Part shown: piece after piece, positions 1 to 23,826 of the stretch | Numbering within the stretch: the stretch's first letter is position 1 | Layout of the letters: the number at the start of each line of letters is the position of its first letter | NCBI GenBank assembly: GCA_903928115.1 | Contig: CAIYPP010000074.1 | Location: 1-64,000, forward strand | DNA: 64,000 bases | Direction: 5' to 3' | From: an uncultured Planctomycetota bacterium | Lineage (GTDB): Bacteria > Planctomycetota > UBA1135 > GCA-002686595 | Position numbers and translations under genes: made by a program | The notes under the pieces: model-generated | Told to the model about the DNA's origin: nothing | What the model saw: the letters and a program-made list of their open reading frames with translations, nothing else | Database searches by the model: none

Positions 1-1330
<1,330 letters not shown>

Positions 1331-1334
<4 letters not shown>

Positions 1335-2032
1335 CGTGCAAGGCTCTTCGTGGCGAGGGCGAGGACGGAGTCGAACATCCGCGGTGTCAGGCGGCCGGTC
1401 TGCGTATTGAGGCGGCTCGGGTGGAAGCTCGCGAGGACTTCGAGTTCCCCGCAGCGATAGCGCGCACCGTGGGCGAAGCGCACGAGCGGCTTGGGTACGT
1501 CGTAGCCTGCGGCTCGCAGCGCGCGCGCCACGGCTCGCCAGCTGTCGGCGCCGAGGCACAGGACCTTCGCGGGCCGCCGCAGCAGCGCGAGCTCGCGTGC
1601 GAGGAAGGGTGCGCAGCGCTCGAACTCGCGCGGGCTGGGCTTGTTGCCCGGCGGCACGCAGCGCACGGCGTTCGAGATACGGGCGCCGCGGAGCGCGAGC
1701 CCGTCGTCGACGCTGCGCGACGTCGGCTGGCTCGCGATGCCGGCGCGCTGCAGCGCGGAAAAGAGGAAATCGCCGGAGCTGTCGCCCGTGAACGGACGGC
1801 CCGTACGGTTGGCGCCGTGCGCGCCCGGCGCGAGCCCGACGATCAGGAGCTCCGCGCGCGCATCGCCGAAGCTCGCGACGCCGCGCGAGTGGTACGGAGT
1901 GCCTCGCCACGCGCGCGGACCGGACTGCGAGCACGCGGAACGCCAGCGCACGAGGCGCGGACAGCGCTCGCACGCGAGCGTGTCCTGCGCGAGTGCTTCG
2001 AGCGAGTCTGTGGCGGCTGGGCGGCGCGGCAT
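1331..2032 (-). CDS. Uracil-DNA glycosylase, family 4 (UdgA-like)
   Basis: 233 aa, starting MPRRP at 2032. Motifs: CERCPRL (4Fe-4S cysteines) and GLAPGAHGANRTGRPFTGDSSGDFL, the family-4 UDG active-site block. The 4-nt stop/start overlap with the photolyase gene suggests translational coupling. Confidence 0.85.
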
Positions 2033-2063
2033 CGGGACGCTCCAGCCTACGGCGAGCCGCGCC

Positions 2064-3521
2064 TCACGCGGCTTCGAGCGGCGTCGCGCCGAAGCGCAGC
2101 CGCATCGCCCGCGTGCGGTAGCCGAAGATCGTGGCGAGCTTCGGTGCGACGAGCAGCTTCTGCGCCAGCGCGCCGAGCGGTCCGAGCGGCGGCGAGTACC
2201 ACACGCGATCCTCCATGATCGTGTCGGCGCCGTCGCGCGCGAAGTGGTGCTCGTGCCACCAGCAGCTGTAGGGACCGACGAGCTGGCTGTCGGAGAACAC
2301 CACGCCGGGCTGCCACGTGTCGATGCGCGAGCGCCAGTCGAGCGCCACCGGACCGATCTGCACCTTGTAGTCGATCTCGCGCCCCACGTGCATGTCGATC
2401 GGCGGCCGCGACTCCAGCGAGAACGCCATCGTCGGCGGAGTGATCGCGCCGAGGTTCTCGGAGCGCGAGAAGAACGCGAACACGTCTTCGAGCGGCGCGT
2501 GGACGCGCATGCGCGAGCGCAGCATGTAGCGCGGTCGCCGCGACGCAAAGTACTCGTGCTTGGGCGGAGCCTCGCTCGCGCCGATCGTGATCCCCGCGTC
2601 GCTGTTGAGGAGATCTGCGAGCGCGCTGTCGAGGTCGGGGAAACGGAAGCGGAAGTCGAGCTCTTCGGCACGCTTCGGCAGCACGCGCGCGCCGGTGAGC
2701 AAGAGGTCCGCGACGTCGCCCAGCGCGAGCTTGAGCGCGAAGCCGGGGGCGGGGAACGGGGTCGGGCGCGACAGCGCGCGGCCGAGTGCCTTCGTGAAGT
2801 CCGCGTTCGTGACGGGCTGCGGAGCGGTCGCGTTGAAGGCGCCGGAGAACTTCGAGTCTTCGAGCGCGCGCATCACGAGCTCGATCCAGTCGTCGACGTG
2901 GATCCACGGCATCCACTGCTTGCCGCTGCCGAGCTTGCCGCCGAGGCCGAAGCGGAAGGGCGGGAGCATCTTCGCGAGCGCACCGCCCTCGGGACCGAGG
3001 ACGATGCCGGTGCGGATCCACGCGGTGCGCACACCCGCGGCGACGGCGGGCTCGGCGGCCGACTCCCAGTCGCGGCAGAGCGCCGAGAGGAAGTCCGACC
3101 CATGGGACGAGCGCTCGTCGATGGGCTCGTCAGCGCGGGGACCATAGAAGCCGACCGCGCTGCCGACGACGAAGGCCTGCGGCTTGCGGGCGGCGGACGC
3201 GATCGCGCGAGCGAGGCGGGCCGTGGTGTCGACGCGGCTCGAGCGCAGCTCCGCGCGGCGCGCGTCGGTCCAGCGGGGTCCGAAGAGAGGCTCGCCCGCG
3301 AGGTGGATCACGGCATGGACGTGGGCCAGCTCGGCGCGCAGCCCGGCGTCGGAGATGTCGGTGCGCAGGAGGCGCGGGCCGGTGCCGAGCGCGGCGCGGG
3401 CACGCTCGGGCGAACGGACCCAAGCGAGCACCTCGTAGCCCTCGCGGGCGAGGCGCAGGGCCAAAAGTCGTCCAAGGAAGCCGGTCGCTCCGGTCAACAA
3501 AACCGTCCGAGAATCGTTCAT
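2064..3521 (-). CDS. TIGR01777/YfcH-type NAD-dependent epimerase (DUF1731) fused to a C-terminal SRPBCC (polyketide cyclase/dehydrase-like) domain
   Basis: 485 aa. N-terminus LLTGATGFLGRLL is a Rossmann GxxGxxG motif, with GKQWMPWIHVDDW typical of the YfcH family. The C-terminal approx 170 aa look like a START/Bet v1 fold. This is the first gene of the minus-strand operon facing litR. Confidence 0.8.
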   Translation of the reverse strand: MNDSRTVLLTGATGFLGRLLALRLAREGYEVLAWVRSPERARAALGTGPRLLRTDISDAGLRAELAHVHAVIHLAGEPLFGPRWTDARRAELRSSRVDTTARLARAIASAARKPQAFVVGSAVGFYGPRADEPIDERSSHGSDFLSALCRDWESAAEPAVAAGVRTAWIRTGIVLGPEGGALAKMLPPFRFGLGGKLGSGKQWMPWIHVDDWIELVMRALEDSKFSGAFNATAPQPVTNADFTKALGRALSRPTPFPAPGFALKLALGDVADLLLTGARVLPKRAEELDFRFRFPDLDSALADLLNSDAGITIGASEAPPKHEYFASRRPRYMLRSRMRVHAPLEDVFAFFSRSENLGAITPPTMAFSLESRPPIDMHVGREIDYKVQIGPVALDWRSRIDTWQPGVVFSDSQLVGPYSCWWHEHHFARDGADTIMEDRVWYSPPLGPLGALAQKLLVAPKLATIFGYRTRAMRLRFGATPLEAA

Positions 3522-3527
3522 GGAGGC

Positions 3528-3580
3528 CTTTCTAGGGCCGCTCGGGACGATTTCTAGAGATTTTGGGACGATTTCCCCTT
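3528..3580. promoter_or_regulatory. Candidate operator of the LitR/CarH-like regulator, in the divergent promoter gap
   Basis: GGGACGATTTC occurs twice exactly (3544-3554 and 3565-3575), 21 bp apart. A third degenerate copy (cTTTCtaGG) sits about 3528. The 95-bp gap separates the start of the epimerase operon (3521, minus) from the litR-like start (3617, plus). Confidence 0.45.
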
Positions 3581-3616
3581 GAGGGGTGGACGGTTCAGGG
3601 CGAAGGTGGACGAACC

Positions 3617-4429
3617 ATGGACGAATTCATGACCAGTGCCGAAGTCGCCCGGCTCCTCGGAGTCGGCCCGACGAGTGTCAAGCGGTGGGCCGACTCTGGC
3701 CTGCTGCCCTGTCTGCGGACCCCCGGCCGCCACCGCCGCTTCTCGCGGCCCGAGGTCGAGAAGTTCCGTCTGAAGCAGCATGAGGTTCAGGAGCCGGATC
3801 CGGCGCAGATCGATGCGTGGATCAAGCTCATCGACTCCGAGTGCGGTCCCTACGAAGTTCACAGCGCGCTCCTCTTCGACCGCTCGCGACTCGACGCCTG
3901 GTGGCGCGTGTCCGAGCTCGTCGGGGCGGTGCTCGCCGAGATCGGTCGCCGCTGGGAAGCCGGCCAGATGGGCATCCTGCAGGAGCACTTGGCCAGCGAG
4001 CGTCTCGCCCGCGGCCTCGCGCGCTGCACCGAGTCCATCGCCGTCCCCCAAAACGGCCCGCGCGCGCTGCTCGTCGGCGCCGAGGGGGACGAGCACACGC
4101 TCGGCCTCCAGCTGGCCGAGCTCGTGTTCCGCGAGCGCGGTTGGAACGTCCTTTGGGGCGGCCGCTCGATGCCGACGACCGAGGTGGTCGGCCGCATCCA
4201 GCACGGCGACTGCGACCTCGTCGCGGTCTCCGCGGCGGCGAGCTTCAAGGACCTCTCGAAGCTGCGCGACCAAGTGCGCGCGGTCGGCTCGGCGTGCCAA
4301 GAGCACGACGTGCAGCTGATCCTCGGCGGCCGTGCCCCGTGGCCGGAGCACGCCAGCGATCTGCCCCGCTTCCACCGCGTCAACAACTTCAGGGAGCTGC
4401 ACGAACTGCTAGGCTCCCTGCATGGCTGA
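3617..4429 (+). CDS. litR: MerR-family, B12-binding light-responsive transcriptional regulator (LitR/CarH type)
   Basis: N-terminus MTSAEVARLLGVGPTSVKRWADSGLL is a MerR/excisionase-type HTH. The C-terminus carries the cobalamin-binding DxHxxG signature in LLVGAEGDEHTLGLQ, followed by a Rossmann-like GG segment. There is an SD-like GAAGGTGGA upstream of the ATG at 3617; the ORF-track start at 3563 is probably too far upstream. Confidence 0.8.
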   Translation: MDEFMTSAEVARLLGVGPTSVKRWADSGLLPCLRTPGRHRRFSRPEVEKFRLKQHEVQEPDPAQIDAWIKLIDSECGPYEVHSALLFDRSRLDAWWRVSELVGAVLAEIGRRWEAGQMGILQEHLASERLARGLARCTESIAVPQNGPRALLVGAEGDEHTLGLQLAELVFRERGWNVLWGGRSMPTTEVVGRIQHGDCDLVAVSAAASFKDLSKLRDQVRAVGSACQEHDVQLILGGRAPWPEHASDLPRFHRVNNFRELHELLGSLHG

Positions 4430-5396
4430 GAGCACCGGCGGCGCACCTGCGCGAGCGATTCGAGTCGGCACGAGCGCGTGCCTGCTCGGCTCTCAGGTGC
4501 GCTTCGACGGCGGACACAAGCGCGAGCGCTTCCTCACGGAAGGGCTCGCGCCTTTTTTTGAGTTTGTCTCCGTGTGCCCCGAGGTCGAGAGCGGGCTCTC
4601 GATTCCGCGTCCGACCCTGCGCCTCGTCGGCGCGGAGGACGATCCGCGGCTCGTGTTCGGCGAGAGCGGCGAGGAGTACACCCCGCAGCTGCGCGCCTGG
4701 GCGAAAGCGAAGCTCGACGCGCTCGCGGAGCTCGACCTGTGCGGCTTCGTCTTGAAGAGCGACAGCCCGAGCTGCGGCATGGAGCGCGTCAAGGTCTACA
4801 ACGACAAGGGCATGGCCTCGAAGAAGGGGCGCGGGATCTTCGCGGCGGCGCTGATGGCGCGCTTTCCGCTGCTGCCCGTCGAAGAAGAGGGTCGACTCAA
4901 CGACGCGAAGCTGCGCGAGACCTTCGTCGAGAGCGTGTTTGCGTACCGCCGCTGGCGCGACCTCTTGGAGGTCGGGCTCACCTTGCCGCGCATCGTCGAC
5001 TTCCACCGCGTCCACAAGTACCTGCTCTTGGCGCACAGCCCCGAGCACTACGCGTCGCTCGGGCGGCTCGTCGCAGGCGCGAAGAAGCTCTCGAAGGGCG
5101 AGCTCGCCGAGAGCTACGGTCGCGGCTTCATGGAGGCGATGGGCAAGAACGCCTCGCGCGGGCGGCACTACAACGTGCTCCAGCACATGGCGGGGTACTT
5201 CAAGGACGAACTCGACGCGCCGTCCCGCGAGGAGCTGCACCAGACCCTCGACGACTACCGGGCGGGGCTCGTGCCGCTCGTCGTTCCGATCACGCTGATC
5301 CGCCACCACGTGCGGGTGCGCGAGGTCGGATACCTGCGCGATCAGGTCTATCTCGCGCCGCATCCAAAGGAGCTGATGCTCCGAAATCACGTCTAG
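4422..5396 (+). CDS. DUF523 plus DUF1722 fusion protein (YbgA-like). In E. coli ybgA is cotranscribed with phr.
   Basis: 324 aa. VGTSACLLGSQVRFDGGHK is the DUF523 N-terminal block, and the C-terminal half is YbgA-like. The start overlaps the litR stop. Confidence 0.75.
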   Translation: MAESTGGAPARAIRVGTSACLLGSQVRFDGGHKRERFLTEGLAPFFEFVSVCPEVESGLSIPRPTLRLVGAEDDPRLVFGESGEEYTPQLRAWAKAKLDALAELDLCGFVLKSDSPSCGMERVKVYNDKGMASKKGRGIFAAALMARFPLLPVEEEGRLNDAKLRETFVESVFAYRRWRDLLEVGLTLPRIVDFHRVHKYLLLAHSPEHYASLGRLVAGAKKLSKGELAESYGRGFMEAMGKNASRGRHYNVLQHMAGYFKDELDAPSREELHQTLDDYRAGLVPLVVPITLIRHHVRVREVGYLRDQVYLAPHPKELMLRNHV

Positions 5397-5478
5397 CGGC
5401 CGTTCTGGCCGACTCGACGATGCGCACCCCCCAAATGAACTGCCGCGCGGGCGGCCGACGGGCCGACGGGGGCCTCGC

Positions 5479-6285
5479 GTGAGCTTCGCGCAGGGGTTGG
5501 AGCTCGCCCTTCTGGGCTGGGCCGTGGCGGCGGGCGTGATGCTCGTGCTGTGGATGATCCAGCTCCGCACGCGCGACGCGACCGAGGTCGACATGGCTTG
5601 GGCGGCGAATCTCGGGGTGCTCGCGGTGCTCTACGCATGGCGGGCGGACGGGCTGCCCGAGCGGCGCTGGCTGGTGGGCGGGCTCGTGGCGCTCGCCTCG
5701 TGGCGGCTCGCGCTCTACCTGTACCTCGACCGTGGACGCAAGGGCGTCGAAGATGGTCGCTACGCCACACTGCGCGCGTCGTGGGGGAGCGCGGCGAACG
5801 CGAAGTTCTTCGTGTTCTATCAGGCGCAGGCGCTGCTCGACGTTCTGCTGGCGCTGCCGTTTCTGCTCGCGTGCGGAGCGAGCGCGCCGCTCTCGTGGCT
5901 CGACGGGCTCGGCGTCGCGCTCGCGGTGGTCGCGGCGCTCGGCGAGTCGCTCGCCGATCGCCAGCTCGCGCGCTTTCGCGCCGAGCCCGCGAACCGCGGC
6001 CGCACGTGCCGCTCGGGGCTGTGGCGCTACTCGCGTCACCCCAACTACTTCTTCCAGTGGCTCCTGTGGTGCGGCTACGCGTGCTTTGCGTGGAACGCGC
6101 CTTGGGGTTGGCTCGGCGTCGTGAGTCCGCTCGCGATGCTCGGACTGATTCTGTTCGTCACGGGCATTCCGCCCACCGAGGCCCAAGCGCTGCGTTCGCG
6201 CGGCGACGACTACCGCGCGTACCAGCGCACCACGAGCTCGTTCGTCCCGTGGTTTCCCAAGGACGACGCGGCTCCCGCGAGGTGA
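5479..6285 (+). CDS. DUF1295 membrane protein (steroid 5-alpha-reductase / ICMT-like fold)
   Basis: 268 aa, hydrophobic with several TM segments. [20 protein letters not shown] is the conserved DUF1295 motif. Confidence 0.8.
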
Positions 6286-6289
6286 ACAT

Positions 6290-7321
6290 ATGGCACTGCA
6301 GACCCTGATCGAGTCGGGCAAGGTCCCGGATTTCGCGCTGCGCATGGGCATTCGGCGTCTCTTGGCGCAGCGCCTGCGCGAGGAGGAGGCGGGCGGCGAA
6401 GAGGGGCGCAGGACGCGCCGCGAGGCGCTGCTCGCGAACATGCGCTCGAGTCCGATCGCGCTGCACACGGCCGAAGCCAACGACCAGCACTACGAGGTGC
6501 CGACGCGCTTCTACGAGCTCGCGCTCGGGCCGCACCTCAAGTACTCGGGCGCGCTGTGGAACGCCGGCACGCGCACGCTCGGCGAGGCGGAAGAGGCGAT
6601 GCTCGCGCTCTATTGCGAGCGCGCGGGCCTCGTCGACGGCATGGACGTCTTGGAGCTCGGCTGCGGCTGGGGGTCGCTGAGCCTCTACATGGCCGCGCGC
6701 TTTCCGAAGAGCCGGATCCTCGGCGTGTCGAACTCGCGCACCCAGCGCGAGCACATCCTCGCCAAGGCGAAGGAGCGCGGGATCACCAACCTCGAGATCG
6801 AGACCTGCGACATCAACCGCTGGAGCACCGCGCGGCGCTTCGATCGCGTGATGTCGGTCGAGATGTTCGAGCACCTGCGCAACTGGGAGCAGCTGTTTGC
6901 GTTGATCGCGGGCGCGCTGAAGCCCGAAGGGAAGCTCTTCTTCCACATTTTTACCCACGTCCGTCACGCCTACCTGTTCCAGACCGAGGGCGATGACAAC
7001 TGGATGGGGCGCAACTTCTTTACAGGCGGCATCATGCCGTCGGACGACTTGCCGCTCGCGTTCCAGCGCGACTTGGAGTGCGTCGAGCGCTGGCAGGTCG
7101 ACGGCACGCACTACGGCAAGACGGCCGAGGCGTGGCTCGCGAACATGGATCGCAACAAGAACGAGGTGCGCGAGCTCTTCCGCGCGACCTACGGCGCGGG
7201 CCGCGAGCGCGCTTGGATCGAGAATTGGCGCGTGTTCTTCATGGCGTGCGCGGAGCTCTGGAACTACCGTAACGGCTCGGAGTGGATCGTCTCCCACTAC
7301 CTGTTCCGTCGTCGCCCTTAG
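6290..7321 (+). CDS. SAM-dependent methyltransferase of the cyclopropane-fatty-acyl-phospholipid synthase family (short paralog)
   Basis: 343 aa. [16 protein letters not shown] is SAM-binding motif I. The [24 protein letters not shown] block and the C-terminal [12 protein letters not shown] are typical of the CFA-synthase / mycolic-acid methyltransferase family. Confidence 0.8.
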
Positions 7322-7334
7322 AGGTCTTGTCCGG

Positions 7335-8297
7335 ATGGAGTCGTCGCCGCAGGCCGCCGCTGGCCCTAAGAAGACCACGTCGCTGGCCTTCCTGCGCTGG
7401 ATCGACTCGTGGGCAGGCATCGACGAGCCGGTCGCGAGCACCGAGAAGCGCGTCGACTGGCCGCGCATCCTGCCCTTCGCGCTGCTGCACGTGGCCTGCC
7501 TCGGCGTGATCTGGGTGGGCTGGAGTCCGGTGGCCGTGGGCGTCGCCGTCGCGCTCTACGTGGTCCGCATGTTTGCGATCACGGCCTTCTACCACCGCTA
7601 CTTCTCGCACCGCACGTTCAAGACCTCGCGCGCGATGCAGTTCCTGTTCGGCGTGCTCGGCAACAGCGCGGTGCAGCGCGGGCCCCTGTGGTGGGCCGCG
7701 CACCACCGCGAGCACCACCTGAACTCCGACACGGACGACGACACGCACTCGCCGGTGCGCCACGGGTTCTTTTGGAGCCACGTCGGCTGGATCACGGCCA
7801 AGCACAACTTCCCGACGCGGCGCGAGCGCGTGAAGGACCTGCTCAAGTACCCGGAGCTGTGCTTCCTCGACCGCTTCGACATCGTGGTGCCGATCGCGAT
7901 GTTCGCGGGGCTGTACGGGCTCGGCGCGTGGCTCGGGTCGGCCTACCCCGAGCTCGGCACGAGCGGCTGGCAGCTCGTCGTGTGGGGGATGATCTCGACC
8001 GTCGTGCTGTTCCACGCGACGTTCACGATCAACTCGCTCGCGCACGTGTGGGGCACGCGGCGCTTCCAGACGCGCGACGCGAGCCGCAACAACTGGTTCC
8101 TCGCGATCGTCACGCTCGGCGAGGGCTGGCACAACAACCACCACCACTATCAGGGCTCGGTGCGGCAGGGCTTCGTGTGGTGGGAGTACGACCCGAGCTA
8201 CTACGCGCTGCGCGCGATGAGCTGGCTCGGCCTCGTGTGGCAGCTGAATCCGGTGCCTGCCGTGGTGCTCGAGAAGCGGCTCGAGAAGCGCGGCTAG
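7335..8297 (+). CDS. Membrane fatty-acid desaturase (acyl-CoA / acyl-lipid Delta9-desaturase family)
   Basis: Three histidine boxes are present: HRYFSHR, HREHHLNSD and HNNHHHY. The start was moved to ATG 7335 (MESSPQ), because the ORF-track start at 6993 overlaps the upstream gene and translates to low-complexity junk. Confidence 0.8.
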   Translation: MESSPQAAAGPKKTTSLAFLRWIDSWAGIDEPVASTEKRVDWPRILPFALLHVACLGVIWVGWSPVAVGVAVALYVVRMFAITAFYHRYFSHRTFKTSRAMQFLFGVLGNSAVQRGPLWWAAHHREHHLNSDTDDDTHSPVRHGFFWSHVGWITAKHNFPTRRERVKDLLKYPELCFLDRFDIVVPIAMFAGLYGLGAWLGSAYPELGTSGWQLVVWGMISTVVLFHATFTINSLAHVWGTRRFQTRDASRNNWFLAIVTLGEGWHNNHHHYQGSVRQGFVWWEYDPSYYALRAMSWLGLVWQLNPVPAVVLEKRLEKRG

Positions 8298-8309
8298 GGA
8301 GCGAGCGGC

Positions 8310-9596
8310 TTGCGCGTCGCCATCGTCGGCAGCGGGATCTCGGGCCTCGTCGTAGCGCACCACCTCGCGCGCGAGCACCAGATCGAGCTCTACGAGGCGG
8401 GCAGCTACGTCGGCGGCCACACGCACACGCACACGCTCGAGCTCGGCGGCCGCACCCTCTCGATCGACACGGGCTTCATCGTCTTCAACCGCAAGACGTA
8501 CCCCAACTTCTGTCACCTGCTCGAAGAGCTCGGCGTCGCCTCCAAGGAGAGCGACATGAGCTTCAGCGTGCGCGAGGAGCGCACGGGCATCGAGTGGAAC
8601 GGGCGCAACCTCGACACGGTGTACGCGCAGCGCTCGAACCTCTTGAGGCCGAGCTTCCACCGCATGGTGCTTGACATCCTGCGCTTCAACCGTGAAGCGC
8701 AGGAGCTGCTCTCCGGCGACGACGAGATCCCGCTGGGCGACTACCTGCGAGAGCGGCGCTACTCCGAGAGCTTCCGCCGGCTCTACATCCTGCCGATGGG
8801 GGCCGCGATCTGGTCGGCGAGCCCCGACGAGATGCTCGCCTTCCCCGCGCGCTTCTTCGTGCGCTTCTTCCACAACCATGGGTTCCTGCAGGTCGAGGGG
8901 CGGCCGGTGTGGCGTGTGGTCGAGGGCGGGTCGGCGCGCTACGTCGAGGCCCTGATCCGGCCTTTCCGCGAGCGCGTCCACGTCTCGACGCCCGTGCGAT
9001 CGGTGCGGCGTATGGCGGACGGGGTCGAAGTCGAGCTGGCGCGCGGCGAGCGGCAGCGCTTCGACCACGTGGTGCTTGCGACCCACAGCGACACGGCGCT
9101 GGCCCTGCTCGCCGATCCGAGCCCCGTCGAGCGCTCGGTCTTGGGCGCGATCCGCTATCAGGAAAACGAGGCCGTGCTCCACACGGACGCCTCCCTGCTC
9201 CCCAAGCGGCGCAAGGTCTGGGCCAGCTGGAACTACCACCTGCTCGACCCCGGCGGGCAGGGGGCGGAAGGGGTGAATCCACACCGGGCGACGCTGACGT
9301 ACTGGATGAATAGGCTGCAGGGCCTCGACTGCCCCGAGGAGCTCTGCGTGACCCTGAACCACTCCCAGGCCGTCCAGCCCTCTCGGGTCCTGCGTCGAAT
9401 GACCTACCACCACCCGCACTTCGACCTCCCGACCGTCGCCGCCCAGCGGCGCTGGTCCGAGGTCAGCGGCGTGAACAGGACCTCCTTCGCCGGTGCGTAC
9501 TGGCGCTACGGATTCCATGAGGACGGCGTGATGAGCGGCCTGCGGGTCGTCGAGGCCCTCTCGGGCCGCCGTGTCCTCGTGGAGCCGTGGTCGTGA
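8310..9596 (+). CDS. FAD/NAD-binding amine-oxidase-like oxidoreductase (UfaD-like position)
   Basis: MRVAIVGSGISGLVVAHHL is a dinucleotide-binding GxGxxG motif. 428 aa. The architecture matches the flavin amine oxidases found next to DUF1365 and cfa genes. Confidence 0.8.
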   Translation: MRVAIVGSGISGLVVAHHLAREHQIELYEAGSYVGGHTHTHTLELGGRTLSIDTGFIVFNRKTYPNFCHLLEELGVASKESDMSFSVREERTGIEWNGRNLDTVYAQRSNLLRPSFHRMVLDILRFNREAQELLSGDDEIPLGDYLRERRYSESFRRLYILPMGAAIWSASPDEMLAFPARFFVRFFHNHGFLQVEGRPVWRVVEGGSARYVEALIRPFRERVHVSTPVRSVRRMADGVEVELARGERQRFDHVVLATHSDTALALLADPSPVERSVLGAIRYQENEAVLHTDASLLPKRRKVWASWNYHLLDPGGQGAEGVNPHRATLTYWMNRLQGLDCPEELCVTLNHSQAVQPSRVLRRMTYHHPHFDLPTVAAQRRWSEVSGVNRTSFAGAYWRYGFHEDGVMSGLRVVEALSGRRVLVEPWS

Positions 9597-10354
9597 GGAG
9601 CGCGGTCTACTTCGGGCGTGTGGGGCACCGTCGGATCGGCGGGGTCGAGCACGCGTTCGGCTACGGGCACGTCTTGCTCGCACTCGACCTCTCCGAGCTC
9701 GACCGCGCGTTCCGCGGTCGCTGGCTGTGGTCGGTCGAGCGCGCGAACCTCGTGAGCTTCCGGCGCGCGGACTACCTCGGGGCCGAAGGCGGGGCGGCGC
9801 TCGACGCGGCCGTGCGAGCGCGCGTGCAGGCGGAGCTCGGGCGCGAGCCGAAGGGGCGCGTGGTGCTGCTCACGCAGCCGCGCTTCGCGGGCTTCGTCTT
9901 CAACCCCGTCAGCTTCTACTACTGCTACGACGCGGACGAGCGCCTCGACGCAATCGTGGCCGAGATCACGAACACGCCGTGGGGCGAGCGGCACAGCTAC
10001 GTGCTCGACGCACGCGGCGGCGCCGGTGCGCGCGCGCGCTTCGCCAAGCGCTTCCACGTCTCGCCGTTCCAAGACATGGGGCAAGAGTACGAGTGGGCCT
10101 TCGGCGAGCTCGGCGAAGAGCTCGACGTGCAGATGACGAACTTCGAGCGCGGCACGCCCGTGTTCGAGGCCCGGCTTCAGATGCGGCGACGCGAGCTCGA
10201 CGGCGCGGCGCTCGCCCGCGCGCTGTGCCTCTGCCCCGGCTTCTCGCTGCGCTCGATCGCGGCGATCTACTGGCAAGCGCTGCGACTCAAGCTCAAAGGC
10301 GCGCCCTTCTTCGAACATCCCCGCACTCGCCGATCCCCCCTCGCGGAGACGTAG
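9587..10354 (+). CDS. DUF1365 family protein (UfaO-like position)
   Basis: 255 aa. Contains GHRRIGGVEHAFGYGHVLLALDLSELD and FVFNPVSFYYCYD, which are conserved DUF1365 blocks. The GTG start overlaps the upstream stop. Confidence 0.75.
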   Translation: MVVRSAVYFGRVGHRRIGGVEHAFGYGHVLLALDLSELDRAFRGRWLWSVERANLVSFRRADYLGAEGGAALDAAVRARVQAELGREPKGRVVLLTQPRFAGFVFNPVSFYYCYDADERLDAIVAEITNTPWGERHSYVLDARGGAGARARFAKRFHVSPFQDMGQEYEWAFGELGEELDVQMTNFERGTPVFEARLQMRRRELDGAALARALCLCPGFSLRSIAAIYWQALRLKLKGAPFFEHPRTRRSPLAET

Positions 10355-10360
10355 GAACCC

Positions 10361-11653
10361 ATGAGCACTCCCGCCTTCACCCAGGAAGTCCGCTACGCGC
10401 CCGAGCCGGTGCGCGTCTCGCGCTCGCGTCCCTTCAGCGCGCTCGAGCGCTTCGCGCGCACTCAGCTCTGCCAGCGTCTCGCGGGGATCCGCTGGGGGCG
10501 CCTCGTGCTGCGCGACGCCCTCGGTTCGCAGGTGTTCGGCGGCGCGGAGGGGCCGAGCGCGACCATCGAGGTGCACGACGGCGAGCTGTACCTCGACATC
10601 GCCAAGCAGGGCAGCGTCGGTGCGGGCGAGGCCTACGCGCACGGCGCGTGGTCGACCGACGACCTCACCCACGTGATCCGCATTCTCGTGCGCAATCGCG
10701 ACGTGCTGCAGGGAATGGAGAAGGGCTTCGCGCGACTCGGCAGCTCGGCGCTACGAATTTGGCACTCGCGCCGCGACAACACGCGCGCGGGATCGCGCGA
10801 GAACATCGCGGCGCACTACGACCTCGGCAACGAGTTCTACGAGCTGTGGCTCGACGAGACGATGATGTACTCGTGCGCGGCGTTCGAGCGCGCGGACATG
10901 ACGCTCCACGAAGCGCAGGTCGCGCGCTTGGACCGCATCTGCCGCAAGCTCGATCTCAAGCCGACGGACCACTTGCTCGAGATCGGCACGGGTTGGGGCG
11001 GGATGGCGCTCCATGCGGCGCGGGAGTTCGGCTGCCGCGTGACGACGACGACGATCTCGCGTCGTCAGCACGAAAAGGCGGTCGAGCGCGTGCGCGCGGC
11101 GGGGCTCGAAGACCGCGTGACGGTGCTCTTCGAGGACTACCGCGATCTCCAAGGTCGCTTCGACAAGCTCGTGTCGCTCGAGATGATCGAGGCGGTCGGC
11201 GAGCGCTGGTACGACACGTACTTCACCAAGTGCTCGGATCTGCTCGCGCCGAACGGGCTCATGCTCCTGCAGGCGATCACGATCCGTGACTCGCTCTACG
11301 AGGAGGCTCTGCGCTCGGTCGACTTCATCCAGCGCTTCATCTTCCCCGGCAGCTGCATTCCGTCGACGGCGGCGATCATGGACCGTGTGGCGCGCGTCAC
11401 CGACATGAACCTGTTCCATCTCGAAGACATCGGGCCGCACTATGCGCCGACGCTGCGGATGTGGCGCGAGAACATGGCGCGCAATGCGGAGCAGATTCGC
11501 GCGCTCGGCTACAGCGAAGAGTTCCTGCGCATGTGGGAGTTCTACCTCTGCTACTGCGAGGGCGGCTTCGAGGAGCGCTCGATCCAAGACGTGCAGATGC
11601 TGCTGGCCAAGCCGGAAAATCGGCGCAATCCTCTGCTTCCGAACCTGCGCTGA
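10361..11653 (+). CDS. cfa: Cyclopropane-fatty-acyl-phospholipid synthase family methyltransferase (full-length paralog)
   Basis: 430 aa. NIAAHYDLGNEFYELWLDETMMYSCAAF matches the canonical Cfa block, LLEIGTGWGGMALHAA is the SAM motif, and EFYLCYCEGGFEERSIQDVQMLLAKP is the C-terminal Cfa block. There is an AGGAA SD upstream. Confidence 0.85.
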   Translation: MSTPAFTQEVRYAPEPVRVSRSRPFSALERFARTQLCQRLAGIRWGRLVLRDALGSQVFGGAEGPSATIEVHDGELYLDIAKQGSVGAGEAYAHGAWSTDDLTHVIRILVRNRDVLQGMEKGFARLGSSALRIWHSRRDNTRAGSRENIAAHYDLGNEFYELWLDETMMYSCAAFERADMTLHEAQVARLDRICRKLDLKPTDHLLEIGTGWGGMALHAAREFGCRVTTTTISRRQHEKAVERVRAAGLEDRVTVLFEDYRDLQGRFDKLVSLEMIEAVGERWYDTYFTKCSDLLAPNGLMLLQAITIRDSLYEEALRSVDFIQRFIFPGSCIPSTAAIMDRVARVTDMNLFHLEDIGPHYAPTLRMWRENMARNAEQIRALGYSEEFLRMWEFYLCYCEGGFEERSIQDVQMLLAKPENRRNPLLPNLR

Positions 11654-11664
11654 GGCGAGCTCGC

Positions 11665-12207
11665 GTGAGCAAGCTCACGAACTTCATCGCATTCCAAGTC
11701 TGCTGGTTCGCGTGCGTGCTCGGCGCGGCGAAGGACATGGAGTGGATCGGGCCGCTCTCGGTGGCGCTCTTTCTCGCGTGGTCGCTGACGCTCGTCGCGA
11801 GCGCGAAGCGCGAGCTCACAGCGCTCGCGGCGGCCGCTGTGCTCGGCACGTTCGTCGACACCGTGCAGCTCCAGATGGGCTGGCTCGAGTATCAGGGCGC
11901 TCCGCTCCTCGGGGTGCTCGCGCCGAGTTGGATCGTCGCGCTGTGGGTTGTGTTTGCGATGACCTTCGACAGCTCGCTCGCCTGGCTGACACGGAGGCGC
12001 GCGTGGTTTTCGGCCTTCGGCGCGATCGGTGCGCCGTTTTCGTACTGGGGCGGTGTGAGATTGGGCGCGGTCGAGTTCGGGGACCCGCTCTGGCCCTCGA
12101 TCGCAGGCATTTCCGTGTGCTGGGGCAGCGCCCTGCCGCTCGCGGCGTGGCTGGTCGAGCGGCTTCGGAGAGCTCCGAGCGGGAAAATCGAGGCGCAGCC
12201 TCACTAG
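11665..12207 (+). CDS. DUF2878 family small membrane protein
   Basis: GTG start at 11665, 180 aa, four predicted TM helices. It is the last gene of the lipid cassette, the same position DUF2878 takes in comparable clusters. Confidence 0.6.
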   Translation: MSKLTNFIAFQVCWFACVLGAAKDMEWIGPLSVALFLAWSLTLVASAKRELTALAAAAVLGTFVDTVQLQMGWLEYQGAPLLGVLAPSWIVALWVVFAMTFDSSLAWLTRRRAWFSAFGAIGAPFSYWGGVRLGAVEFGDPLWPSIAGISVCWGSALPLAAWLVERLRRAPSGKIEAQPH

Positions 12208-23400: not shown

Positions 23401-23826
23401 CGCTTGCTCTCGTGGGGCGATTCTCTTCGCCCGGTTTCTCGATCTCTCCGCGATGCGGGACCGTAGGAGGGAACTGAGTAGGGAAGGAGACGGCATCGGA
23501 GTCGGCGAGGGGTGGAGTGGGAGTCTCCAGCGTCGTTGCGCGGTGCTGCTCTCGGGGGGGGCGTCGCTCACGCAGGAGTGACTGCGCGCGCGAAAGTGGG
23601 GGATTCTGGGCCGCTGCGGGTGCACGAGCGGGAGCCCATCGAAACTCTAGCTTTGAATATAAACGATTGTTGCTAAACGATTTATGGAGGAGATCATCGG
23701 CCCGCTGGGGGTGGATTCTTCCGCGCAGGCTCTGGCGGGGCGGGCGTGGGCTAAGGAAAACGACTCGGGTCCGGCGGGGCGGCGAGCGACCGACCTGCGG
23801 AGTCTCGACCAAGGAGGACCGAATCG

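Follow-up and report, generated by a model that had tools for sequence, protein, structure and literature searches.

Which protein reads the repeated DNA words between a predicted B12 photoreceptor gene and a photolyase operon, and with what effect, is the question raised by a locus in an uncultured Planctomycetota bacterium (assembly GCA_903928115.1). The stretch analyzed here, which we call the window, comprises positions 1 to 64,000 of the forward strand of contig CAIYPP010000074.1. In it, a divergent gap of 95 bp (3522-3616) separates an SDR/DUF1731 gene on the minus strand, to the left, from a gene on the plus strand, to the right, whose product combines a MerR-type helix-turn-helix (HTH) with a B12-binding module and is referred to below as the regulator. 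An original prediction, made from the letters of the window, had proposed that direct repeats in this gap are an operator for the neighboring photoreceptor. We found that the repeats are part of a longer array of conserved, helically phased boxes. Our preferred reading, to which we give a probability of about 0.62, is that these boxes form the operator through which the adjacent CtMerR-like B12 photoreceptor would repress both divergent photoprotection operons in the dark.

An array of same-orientation boxes in the divergent gap

The word GGGACGATTTC occurs exactly at 3544-3554 (box 1) and at 3565-3575 (box 2) on the plus strand, 21 bp apart from start to start. Both copies lie inside the gap that the regulator shares with a genuine SDR-uracil-DNA glycosylase (UDG)-photolyase operon, so that the original prediction was right about the two exact copies and about their location. 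Its count of boxes was incomplete, as further plus-strand copies follow downstream: box 3 (TGGACGGTTCA, 3587-3597), 22 bp past box 2; box 4 (TGGACGAACCA, 3607-3617), 11 bp ahead of the next; and box 5 (TGGACGAATTC, 3618-3628), which lies over the start codon and codons 2-4 of the regulator (M-D-E-F), where the start-codon word reads ATGGACGAATTC (3617-3628, plus strand). The first ATG, at 3617, is taken to be the true start because the orthologous loci L011 and L013-L015 have no second ATG. When scored with a position weight matrix (PWM), box 1, which is followed by TAG to give the extended form GACGATTTCTAG, reached 18.8 bits, box 2 15.5 bits and box 5 18.7 bits; box 3 is weaker (8.8 bits) and box 4 weak (4.9 bits).

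The pentamer GGACG starts at 3545, 3566, 3588, 3608 and 3619, which gives spacings of 21, 22, 20 and 11 bp, and TGGACGAA is found at both 3607 and 3618. The consensus of the boxes is approximately T-G-G-A-C-G-A-W-T-T with the core GWCGRWT, and the array extends from about -73 to +12 relative to the regulator start codon. Box 4 was seen in the window and in locus L010 only and is lineage-specific; the 11/9/11-bp run that it forms with its neighbors (3587-3628) is limited to the same two loci. Runs of T at 3551, 3561 and 3572 are phased at 10-11 bp. Straight after box 2 stands a CTTGAG hexamer (3578-3583, plus strand; conservation 0.87), which may supply the regulator promoter with a -35 element (TTGAGG). 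The hexamer lies at a constant distance from the ATG in the six closest loci (the window, L010 and L001-L004), and in L001 a GAATAT could be read directly 17 nt 3' of TTGAGG.

The boxes are conserved in orthologous loci

Orthologues of the regulator were found in uncultured freshwater Planctomycetota. The gap was aligned over eight orthologous loci (79-100% regulator identity), among which its length is almost fixed, and conservation was scored over seven of them, with the identical L010 left out. The cores of boxes 1 and 2 are the top-conserved 8-mers of the gap, with values of 0.86 (3546-3553) and 0.87 (3566-3573), compared with a mean of 0.54 for the whole gap (3522-3616) and 0.30 for the spacer between the two boxes (3558-3564). 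Invariant columns read GACG..TT..AG in box 1, G.CGA.T in box 2, CT.GA after box 2, and TGGACGAATTC at the start codon, box 5 being invariant at the nucleotide level. The spacing of 20-21 bp between boxes 1 and 2 is retained in L001-L005, L010 and L011. Absence of the repeat at orthologous loci had been named in advance as evidence against an operator; both boxes and their spacing are kept there. Positional conservation of box 3 is low (0.42), since GGACG stands at its position in L003, L004 and L010 and 10 bp further on, still in helical phase, in L001 and L005.

The weaker third copy that had been proposed one period upstream of box 1 (GGAGGCCTTTCTAG, 3523-3536) did not hold up. It has no GACG core, its conservation of 0.47 is below the gap mean, and its TTTCT may be the ribosome-binding region of the divergent gene on the other strand. 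A pseudo-repeat midway between boxes 1 and 2, TAGAGATTTTG, is likewise not claimed as a site (conservation 0.30).

Conservation of box 5 extends to positions that the protein sequence leaves free. Codon 3 of the regulator is GAA in 14 of 14 orthologues with Glu at that position, GAA makes up only 21% of the Glu codons elsewhere in these genes, and the remaining three orthologues carry GAT, by which GACGAT is preserved. These codon choices show that the start-codon box is constrained beyond its coding role, at synonymous sites. More widely, boxes accompany the regulator gene in about 17 independent loci. Three of these lie outside the close Planctomycetota clade, one of them labelled Anaeromyxobacteraceae and one Terriglobales.

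One locus, L006 (76% regulator identity), was considered as a boxless counter-example and rejected. Its upstream 170 bp (1-172), at a contig end, are the gap sequence of the window with many bases turned to G. As L006 keeps CTTGAGG and exactly 32 nt from there to the ATG, we treated this segment as a poly-G sequencing artefact in a public metagenome-assembled genome.

Box spacing follows the helical repeat, and layouts vary between lineages

Relative to the regulator ATG, boxes start at -71, -50, -28 or -18, and +3 in the close clade. The corresponding positions are -70, -50, -18 and +3 in L005; -71, -40, (-8) and +12 in L016 and L017; -80, -49 and +3 in L009; -49 and +3 in L018; and -115, -89, -49, -17 and +3 in L013. 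From one box to the next, the distances group around 20-22, 31-32, 40-41 and 52-53 bp, in each case whole turns of 10.5 bp. With 21 spacings from 8 lineages, chosen conservatively, the mean of cos(2πd/10.5) was 0.76, a value reached by 0 of 100,000 random sets (Monte Carlo p<1e-5). Spacings this near to multiples of 10.5 bp place the boxes on one face of the helix, and all conserved boxes are on the plus strand. In L016 and L017, where the annotated ATG lies 9 nt further upstream, the upstream boxes are in phase with the D-E-F box and not with the ATG.

Conserved islands, common orientation, 10.5-bp phase and gene linkage thus favor that part of the original prediction which saw a direct-repeat operator for the adjacent B12 photoreceptor, serving both transcription units; its upstream copy fell away, and the extra boxes lie downstream. 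The preference for direct over LitR-type inverted repeats suits the window, where the boxes share one orientation, but not more distant orthologues, which use inverted or everted pairs of half-sites. In L012-L014 we found an everted/inverted pair of the half-site, AACCGAC-ATA-GTCGGATT, whose left arm is also present in L008 and L015; the conserved block in which it stands, at about -60 to -40 from the regulator ATG, reads aaaaacAACCGAC-ATA-GTCGGATTg. The same lineages carry GGWCGAAT over the divergent SDR start codon and GGACGAATTY over the regulator start codon. Loci L019 and L020 have pairs of the same half-site in the form GTCGATTT..AAAAyCGG. In the Anaeromyxobacteraceae locus L021, GACGATTAAGACGGTT stands upstream and ATGGACGTATTT at the start codon, the layout being a 9-bp tandem of two copies, and in L023 the other strand carries a 9-bp tandem of three copies. 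The half-site is constant, and its layout is plastic between lineages.

Chance expectation and the search for further sites

Exact repetition of an 11-mer is not rare in this DNA. On 8 separate occasions in the window, an 11-mer recurs exactly within 45 bp (11 overlapping pairs of 11-mers), and shuffled versions have about 5 such pairs, with a maximum of 16, so that the argument from two exact copies is weak by itself. Nor is GGGACGATTTC enriched: with up to two mismatches it has 19 matches in the window against 17.5 expected, and the word alone is therefore no regulon probe. The shorter GACGRWT has 19 copies on both strands of the 64 kb, and 4 of its 10 plus-strand copies fall within 75 bp at the gap. 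Upstream of regulator genes, PWM matches scoring 8 bits or more have 56 times the density seen in the other 188 kb; some of these sites went into building the PWM, which makes the enrichment partly circular. An unbiased count of 6-mers in strictly upstream sequence of 17 loci ranked TTCTAG, ACGATT, GGACGA and CGATTT at the top. The most enriched hexamer was TTCTAG/CTAGAA, present in 10 of the 17 loci compared with 0.01 occurrences expected from the flanks. It is often joined to the box, as in GACGATTCTAG, and one strand of it frequently gives TAGAAT; it may be part of the half-site or else a -10 element of the TAGAAT type.

When the window and the flanks of 23 related loci were searched with the PWM for another pair of boxes in phase, all that came up were coding coincidences, such as 5611/5632 of L005 in a DUF1722 gene. 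A pair of AAACGATT at 23660/23674 of the window was rejected, as it is out of helical phase (14 bp); it lies upstream of genes without a Pfam match. This pair is held in an AT-rich intergenic patch (23640-23690, plus strand), CTCTAGCTTTGAATA-TAAACGATTGTTGC-TAAACGATTTATGG, 3' of an SPFH/Band 7 gene. Rfam over 1-12000 and Tandem Repeats Finder gave no matches; together with the blank promoter and terminator scans, this does not indicate a structured RNA such as a cobalamin riboswitch.

Box-like words also occur at the start of the SDR gene. The 12-mers CGGACGGTTTTG (3498-3509, minus strand), within the first SDR codons, and TGAACGATTCTC (3509-3520, minus strand), which abuts the SDR ATG, scored 13.5 and 10.0 bits. 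The copy at 3498 is above the PWM threshold in L001, L003, L004 and L010; it is coding there (R-T-V/I-L/F), with coding and DNA constraint unseparated. The word ATGAACGATTCTC at this gene start (3509-3521, minus strand) is kept only in the closest relatives L001, L002 and L010.

The regulon pattern GGACGAWTT-N(11-13)-GGACGAWTT was also scanned for on metagenome contigs and matched at least 120 loci. Among the 120 matches listed, tblastn with 120 family members gave no homologue of the regulator or its neighbors except a weak fatty-acid desaturase match in L052. The listed matches are made up of chance occurrences in coding sequence, a low-GC repeat family and direct repeats (L034, L099), the last two being unrelated, and the scan is not counted as negative evidence on the regulon. 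In L034, an unrelated high-GC contig of 3 kb, positions 2324-2398 hold four 22-bp tandem units starting with GGACGAWTTC, three of which read GGACGAWTTCACGG; the units are apparently intergenic and adjoin a putative nuclease-like open reading frame (ORF), and there is no B12 regulator on the contig. The low-GC (0.38-0.46) family, GGACGAATTAnTAATCCGTCC-GGACGAWTT, is interspersed or in tandem, often with several copies per contig (L030, L046, L055, L075, L078, L101, L104, L120, L129 and others), and is unrelated to the box array.

The regulator resembles CtMerR and carries a probable BldC-type DNA-binding domain

The regulator gene (3617-4429, plus strand) encodes 270 aa with Pfam matches to HTH_17, MerR_1, B12-binding_2 and B12-binding. 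The best structural matches to the whole protein are CtMerR (8JBS, E=5e-25) and TtCarH (5C8D/3WHP, E=3e-12), and its Wx9EH motif (WEAGQMGILQEH) and lower-ligand His (GDEHTLG) align with the corresponding residues of Thermus CarH. The DNA-binding domain alone retrieves 8JBS and the BldC structures 6AMA/6AMK (E=8e-8), and does not retrieve TtCarH at E<0.01. It matches the BldC family model NF033787 with E=1e-15 and 57 bits, under the cut-off of 77. Of the DNA contacts of BldC, Arg30, Trp31, His46, Arg47 and Arg48 are aligned to identical residues, and Lys26 is replaced by Thr. We thus regard the domain as a probable BldC/excisionase-type winged HTH that is nearer to BldC and CtMerR than to CarH.

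All 15 loci from the window through L017 share one recognition helix, GVGPTSVKRWADSG, from which the more distant loci differ by only one to three residues. This near-constant helix is consistent with the recurrence of the same core upstream of distant homologues, and it leaves almost no variation in helix residues to compare with that of the boxes.

A proposed dark-state operator model

From the repeats, their conservation, orientation, phase and linkage to the regulator gene, together with the motifs and homologies of the protein, we infer the identity of the binder, its oligomeric state and stoichiometry, the promoter positions, the sign of repression, and the dependence on light and B12. 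Each box would be the docking site of one BldC-type winged-helix domain of the 3617-4429 photoreceptor. In the dark, the protein loaded with adenosylcobalamin (AdoCbl) would assemble into head-to-tail dimers and then tetramers, in the manner of TtCarH and CtMerR. Within one dimer, the two DNA-binding domains would sit in the same orientation, about two turns apart, on boxes 1 and 2; in TtCarH, a dimer spans the direct repeats DR1-DR3 over 22 bp (PMC9304148), which matches the conserved spacing of 21-22 bp. The downstream boxes, including the one at the start codon, would be taken by more subunits or by a second oligomer. The array fills the 95-bp gap, abuts TTGAG (the possible regulator -35) and covers the regulator start, so that DNA occupied over its whole length would stop RNA polymerase at the two divergent promoters. 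Photolysis of the cofactor by UV, blue or green light would then make the oligomer fall apart and derepress both operons. The light-induced set would then comprise the photolyase, UDG, the SDR protein, the lipid-modifying genes and the regulator itself.

Several points weigh against this model, the most general being that all of it rests on sequence comparison. Where the canonical CarH repeat, nnnnTnnACAn, has ACA, the boxes have ACG; those that are conserved do not form a contiguous run of 11-bp repeats, and midway between boxes 1 and 2 there is only an unconserved pseudo-copy (0.30). An array of 85 bp exceeds the known cover of one CarH tetramer, which makes the stoichiometry guesswork. The conservation of TTCTAG at box 1 could partly be that of a -10-like TAGAAW element of the divergent promoter. 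A scan with the sigma-70 consensus and for terminators matched no promoter, and the promoter overlap is inferred. Neither the 64 kb of the window nor the flanks of the orthologous loci yielded another regulated site. Positive regulation has been reported for some LitR proteins, so that the repressive sign is a proposal.

How the whole array might be filled can be stated only tentatively. One idea, which we regard as possible though doubtful, is that B12 photoreceptors with a BldC domain (CtMerR-like) recognize GWCGRWTT, and that the array of about 85 bp at this locus, with half-sites two to three turns apart and running into the regulator coding sequence, needs either a pair of tetramers acting cooperatively or a higher-order dark oligomer with the DNA wrapped or looped around it, with 9-bp tandem, inverted and everted layouts being tolerated in other lineages.

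Alternative explanations

The conserved words might be mainly promoter: a -10-like TAGAAW/TTCTAG, a -35-like TTGAG and curving T-tracts, or the elements of an extracytoplasmic function (ECF)-type sigma factor in a photo-oxidative stress regulon. TTCTAG/CTAGAA is indeed the top hexamer (10 of 17 loci) and often reads TAGAAT on one strand, CTTGAG is conserved as highly as the boxes, the T-runs are phased at 10-11 bp, and ECF sigma control has been reported for related gene clusters elsewhere. However, promoter elements would not be expected as three to five same-orientation phased copies over 85 bp, nor as a box in the first codons with constraint at synonymous sites. In addition, the invariant part is the GACG core and not just the AT-rich tail, box 2 has no TAG and yet is the best-conserved box, and no ECF sigma gene is adjacent. 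As operators usually overlap promoter elements, the promoter and operator readings are compatible, and we consider a mainly promoter role rather unlikely. We judge it unlikely, too, that the boxes are bound by another protein encoded elsewhere, such as a response regulator of the OmpR/PhoB type or a small stand-alone BldC-like protein, with the B12 regulator binding elsewhere or not at all. Proteins of both kinds bind phased direct repeats, and distances of 10-11 or 20-22 bp are typical of response-regulator sites; on the unrelated contig L099, GGACGAATTC occurs twice, 20 bp apart, directly upstream of a gene pair for an OmpR-type regulator and a kinase, an example of similar words serving other proteins. 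What ties the boxes to the 3617-4429 product is comparison of sequences. But that comparison places boxes beside the regulator in every informative orthologous locus, even where the flanks differ (L009, L017-L023) and in distant homologues, and places one box in the regulator's own first codons, with synonymous sites held. The box further resembles the site of the homologous BldC domain, and in the window and the orthologous loci no response-regulator gene is linked to the locus.

A different sign of action, in which the regulator, once on the boxes, activates in response to light or bends the DNA as an architectural factor, in the manner of MerR or BldC, appears improbable to us, even though classical MerR proteins activate through distortion of promoter DNA, BldC bends DNA strongly (PMC5859096), and the apparent -10 regions of the close clade are poor, a setting in which activators are usually needed. 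The characterized CarH and class II LitR proteins are repressors whose sites lie over the -35, the -10 or the transcribed leader (PMC9304148, PMC9758184). A box at the start codon, at or after the likely transcription start, would suit a roadblock rather than an activator, and the Wx9EH motif goes with a light-driven breakup of the dark-state oligomer (PMC11796333). Least credible of all is a functionless chance duplication or recent slippage. It could appeal to the commonness of 11-mer pairs in the window, the lack of enrichment of the word and the blank Tandem Repeats Finder result, but both copies, their spacing and their orientation are kept down to 79% regulator identity while the spacer drops to 0.30; the phasing is non-random, and pure chance is excluded by the conservation.

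Gene content on both sides of the gap

To the left of the gap, the SDR/DUF1731 gene (TIGR01777; 2064-3521, minus strand) encodes 485 aa with a C-terminal extension. Downstream of it follow the UDG gene (about 1331-2080, minus strand; Pfam) and a class II cyclobutane pyrimidine dimer (CPD) photolyase gene (<1-1334, minus strand), which is cut by the window edge and whose product matches PDB 2XRY from M. mazei with E=2e-52. The photolyase ATG overlaps the UDG stop codon (ATGA, junction 1331-1334, minus strand), which suggests translational coupling inside the SDR-UDG-photolyase operon. The C-terminal extension of the SDR protein measures about 180 aa (residues about 305-485) and has faint Polyketide_cyc/SRPBCC matches in orthologues; the fusion of SDR/DUF1731 with this extension next to the regulator is conserved. 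A 466-aa ORF at 60-1460 on the plus strand, without a Pfam match, is the opposite-strand shadow of the photolyase gene.

To the right, the genes 3' of the regulator (4422-11653, plus strand) encode, by Pfam, DUF523/DUF1722, DUF1295, a CMAS-type methyltransferase, a fatty-acid desaturase, a flavin amine oxidase, DUF1365 and a second CMAS protein. Tight or overlapping junctions suggest that the regulator and these genes are co-transcribed. We take this gene set to resemble the light- or singlet-oxygen-induced lipid-modification clusters (furan or cyclopropane fatty acid) of proteobacteria. Most orthologous loci keep the SDR gene and the regulator in divergent orientation, with UDG next after SDR in L019 and L020. 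Downstream gene order is kept in L011-L018, and SDR and DUF1722-DUF1295-CMAS are largely syntenic.

Implications and comparison with known systems

Among transcription switches that respond to green light, only the CarH-type B12 photoreceptors are well understood, and they serve as optogenetic and biomaterial tools. A second branch, with a BldC-like domain and represented by CtMerR, binds AdoCbl and responds to light, and its DNA target is unpublished as far as we found. The present comparison yields a candidate half-site for this branch, natural layouts of it (21-bp phased, 9-bp tandem and palindromic) and a defined 130-bp probe. If the dark-state operator reading is true, it would supply an operator for the CtMerR branch, would extend the plasticity of the CarH family to non-contiguous half-sites, and would place photolyase, uracil-DNA glycosylase and lipid-modification genes of uncultured freshwater Planctomycetota under light control; if it is false, a conserved phased array still needs a binder.

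A classical MerR operator, in which a palindrome sits in an overlong -35/-10 spacer of 19-20 bp, is not suggested, as the window gap contains no conserved inverted repeat, and half-site palindromes appear only in more distant orthologues. The class II LitR proteins PplR1 and PmlR2 of Pseudomonas repress a very similar light-induced gene set and together protect about 80 bp over several sites (-45 or -54 to +32 or +37), one of which lies past the transcription start but ahead of the start codon (PMC9758184). In contrast to the boxes described here, they read TGTACA-N12-TGTACA, with palindromic hexamers at an 18-bp period, and they sense light through a partner LOV protein and not through B12 (PMC9758184). 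TGTACA is not present in 3522-3616.

CtMerR of Chloracidobacterium thermophilum (8JBS/8JBT) is an AdoCbl-binding, green-light-responsive protein that is a tetramer in the dark state (PMC11796333). It is the closest solved relative of the regulator, with SVKRWSDSG...RTPGGHRRF in the recognition helix and wing against SVKRWADSG...RTPGRHRRF, but is longer (327 aa compared with 270 aa here). Its DNA site is unreported, and its authors state that an alternative binding site is probable (PMC11796333). BldC of Streptomyces binds head-to-tail direct repeats in variable number and reads an AT-rich minor groove and a YpG step four bp away (PMC5859096). Its protomer site, YG-N4-(A/G)ATT, is like the boxes, as TG-TCCG-AATT and TG-CTCG-GATT may be set beside TG-GACG-AATT. 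When checked against this pattern, boxes 3, 4 and 5 read TG-GACG-(G/A)(T/A)(T/C)(C/T), with TG-GACG-AATT in box 5, and boxes 1 and 2 need a shift of 1 nt; the pattern is loose, which makes this a weak test. Unlike the regulator, in which the DNA-binding domain is fused to a B12 module, BldC has 68 residues and no sensor domain, and it occupies contiguous 9-bp repeats with domain-domain contacts, a spacing that is absent from the window and was seen at the distant loci L021 and L023.

With CarH (LitR class I; Thermus thermophilus, Bacillus megaterium and myxobacteria) the locus shares a MerR-like HTH joined to a B12 module with Wx9EH and the His ligand, same-orientation repeats on one face of the DNA in the promoter region adjoining the regulator gene, and photoprotection targets. 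The tripartite operator bound by a tetramer, which the original prediction credited to Myxococcus CarH, is the Thermus case: three contiguous 11-bp repeats, nnnnTnnACAn, are bound by the tetramer, and one head-to-tail dimer contacts DR1 and DR3, 22 bp apart (PMC9304148). The design of CarH operators is itself plastic and mixes strong repeats with pseudo-repeats (PMC9304148). Whereas CarH repeats are contiguous 11-bp units, three or four in number, the boxes here lie 21 bp or more apart (21, 22 or 32, 21 or 31). The box TGGACGAWTT begins (T/G)-(G/A)-G-A-C-G, gives TnnACG in some copies and never ACA in the window, a single AGACA copy between boxes being found only in L005. The array is about 85 bp long and enters coding sequence, and in place of carotenoid genes the predicted targets are those for photolyase, UDG and lipid modification. 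A half-site array of this geometry fits neither the contiguous 11-bp CarH operators nor the 9-bp BldC filaments. As both contiguous 11-bp repeats and TnnACA are absent, these comparisons indicate that the array is not a canonical CarH operator but probably a different version of the known CarH/LitR-type switch.

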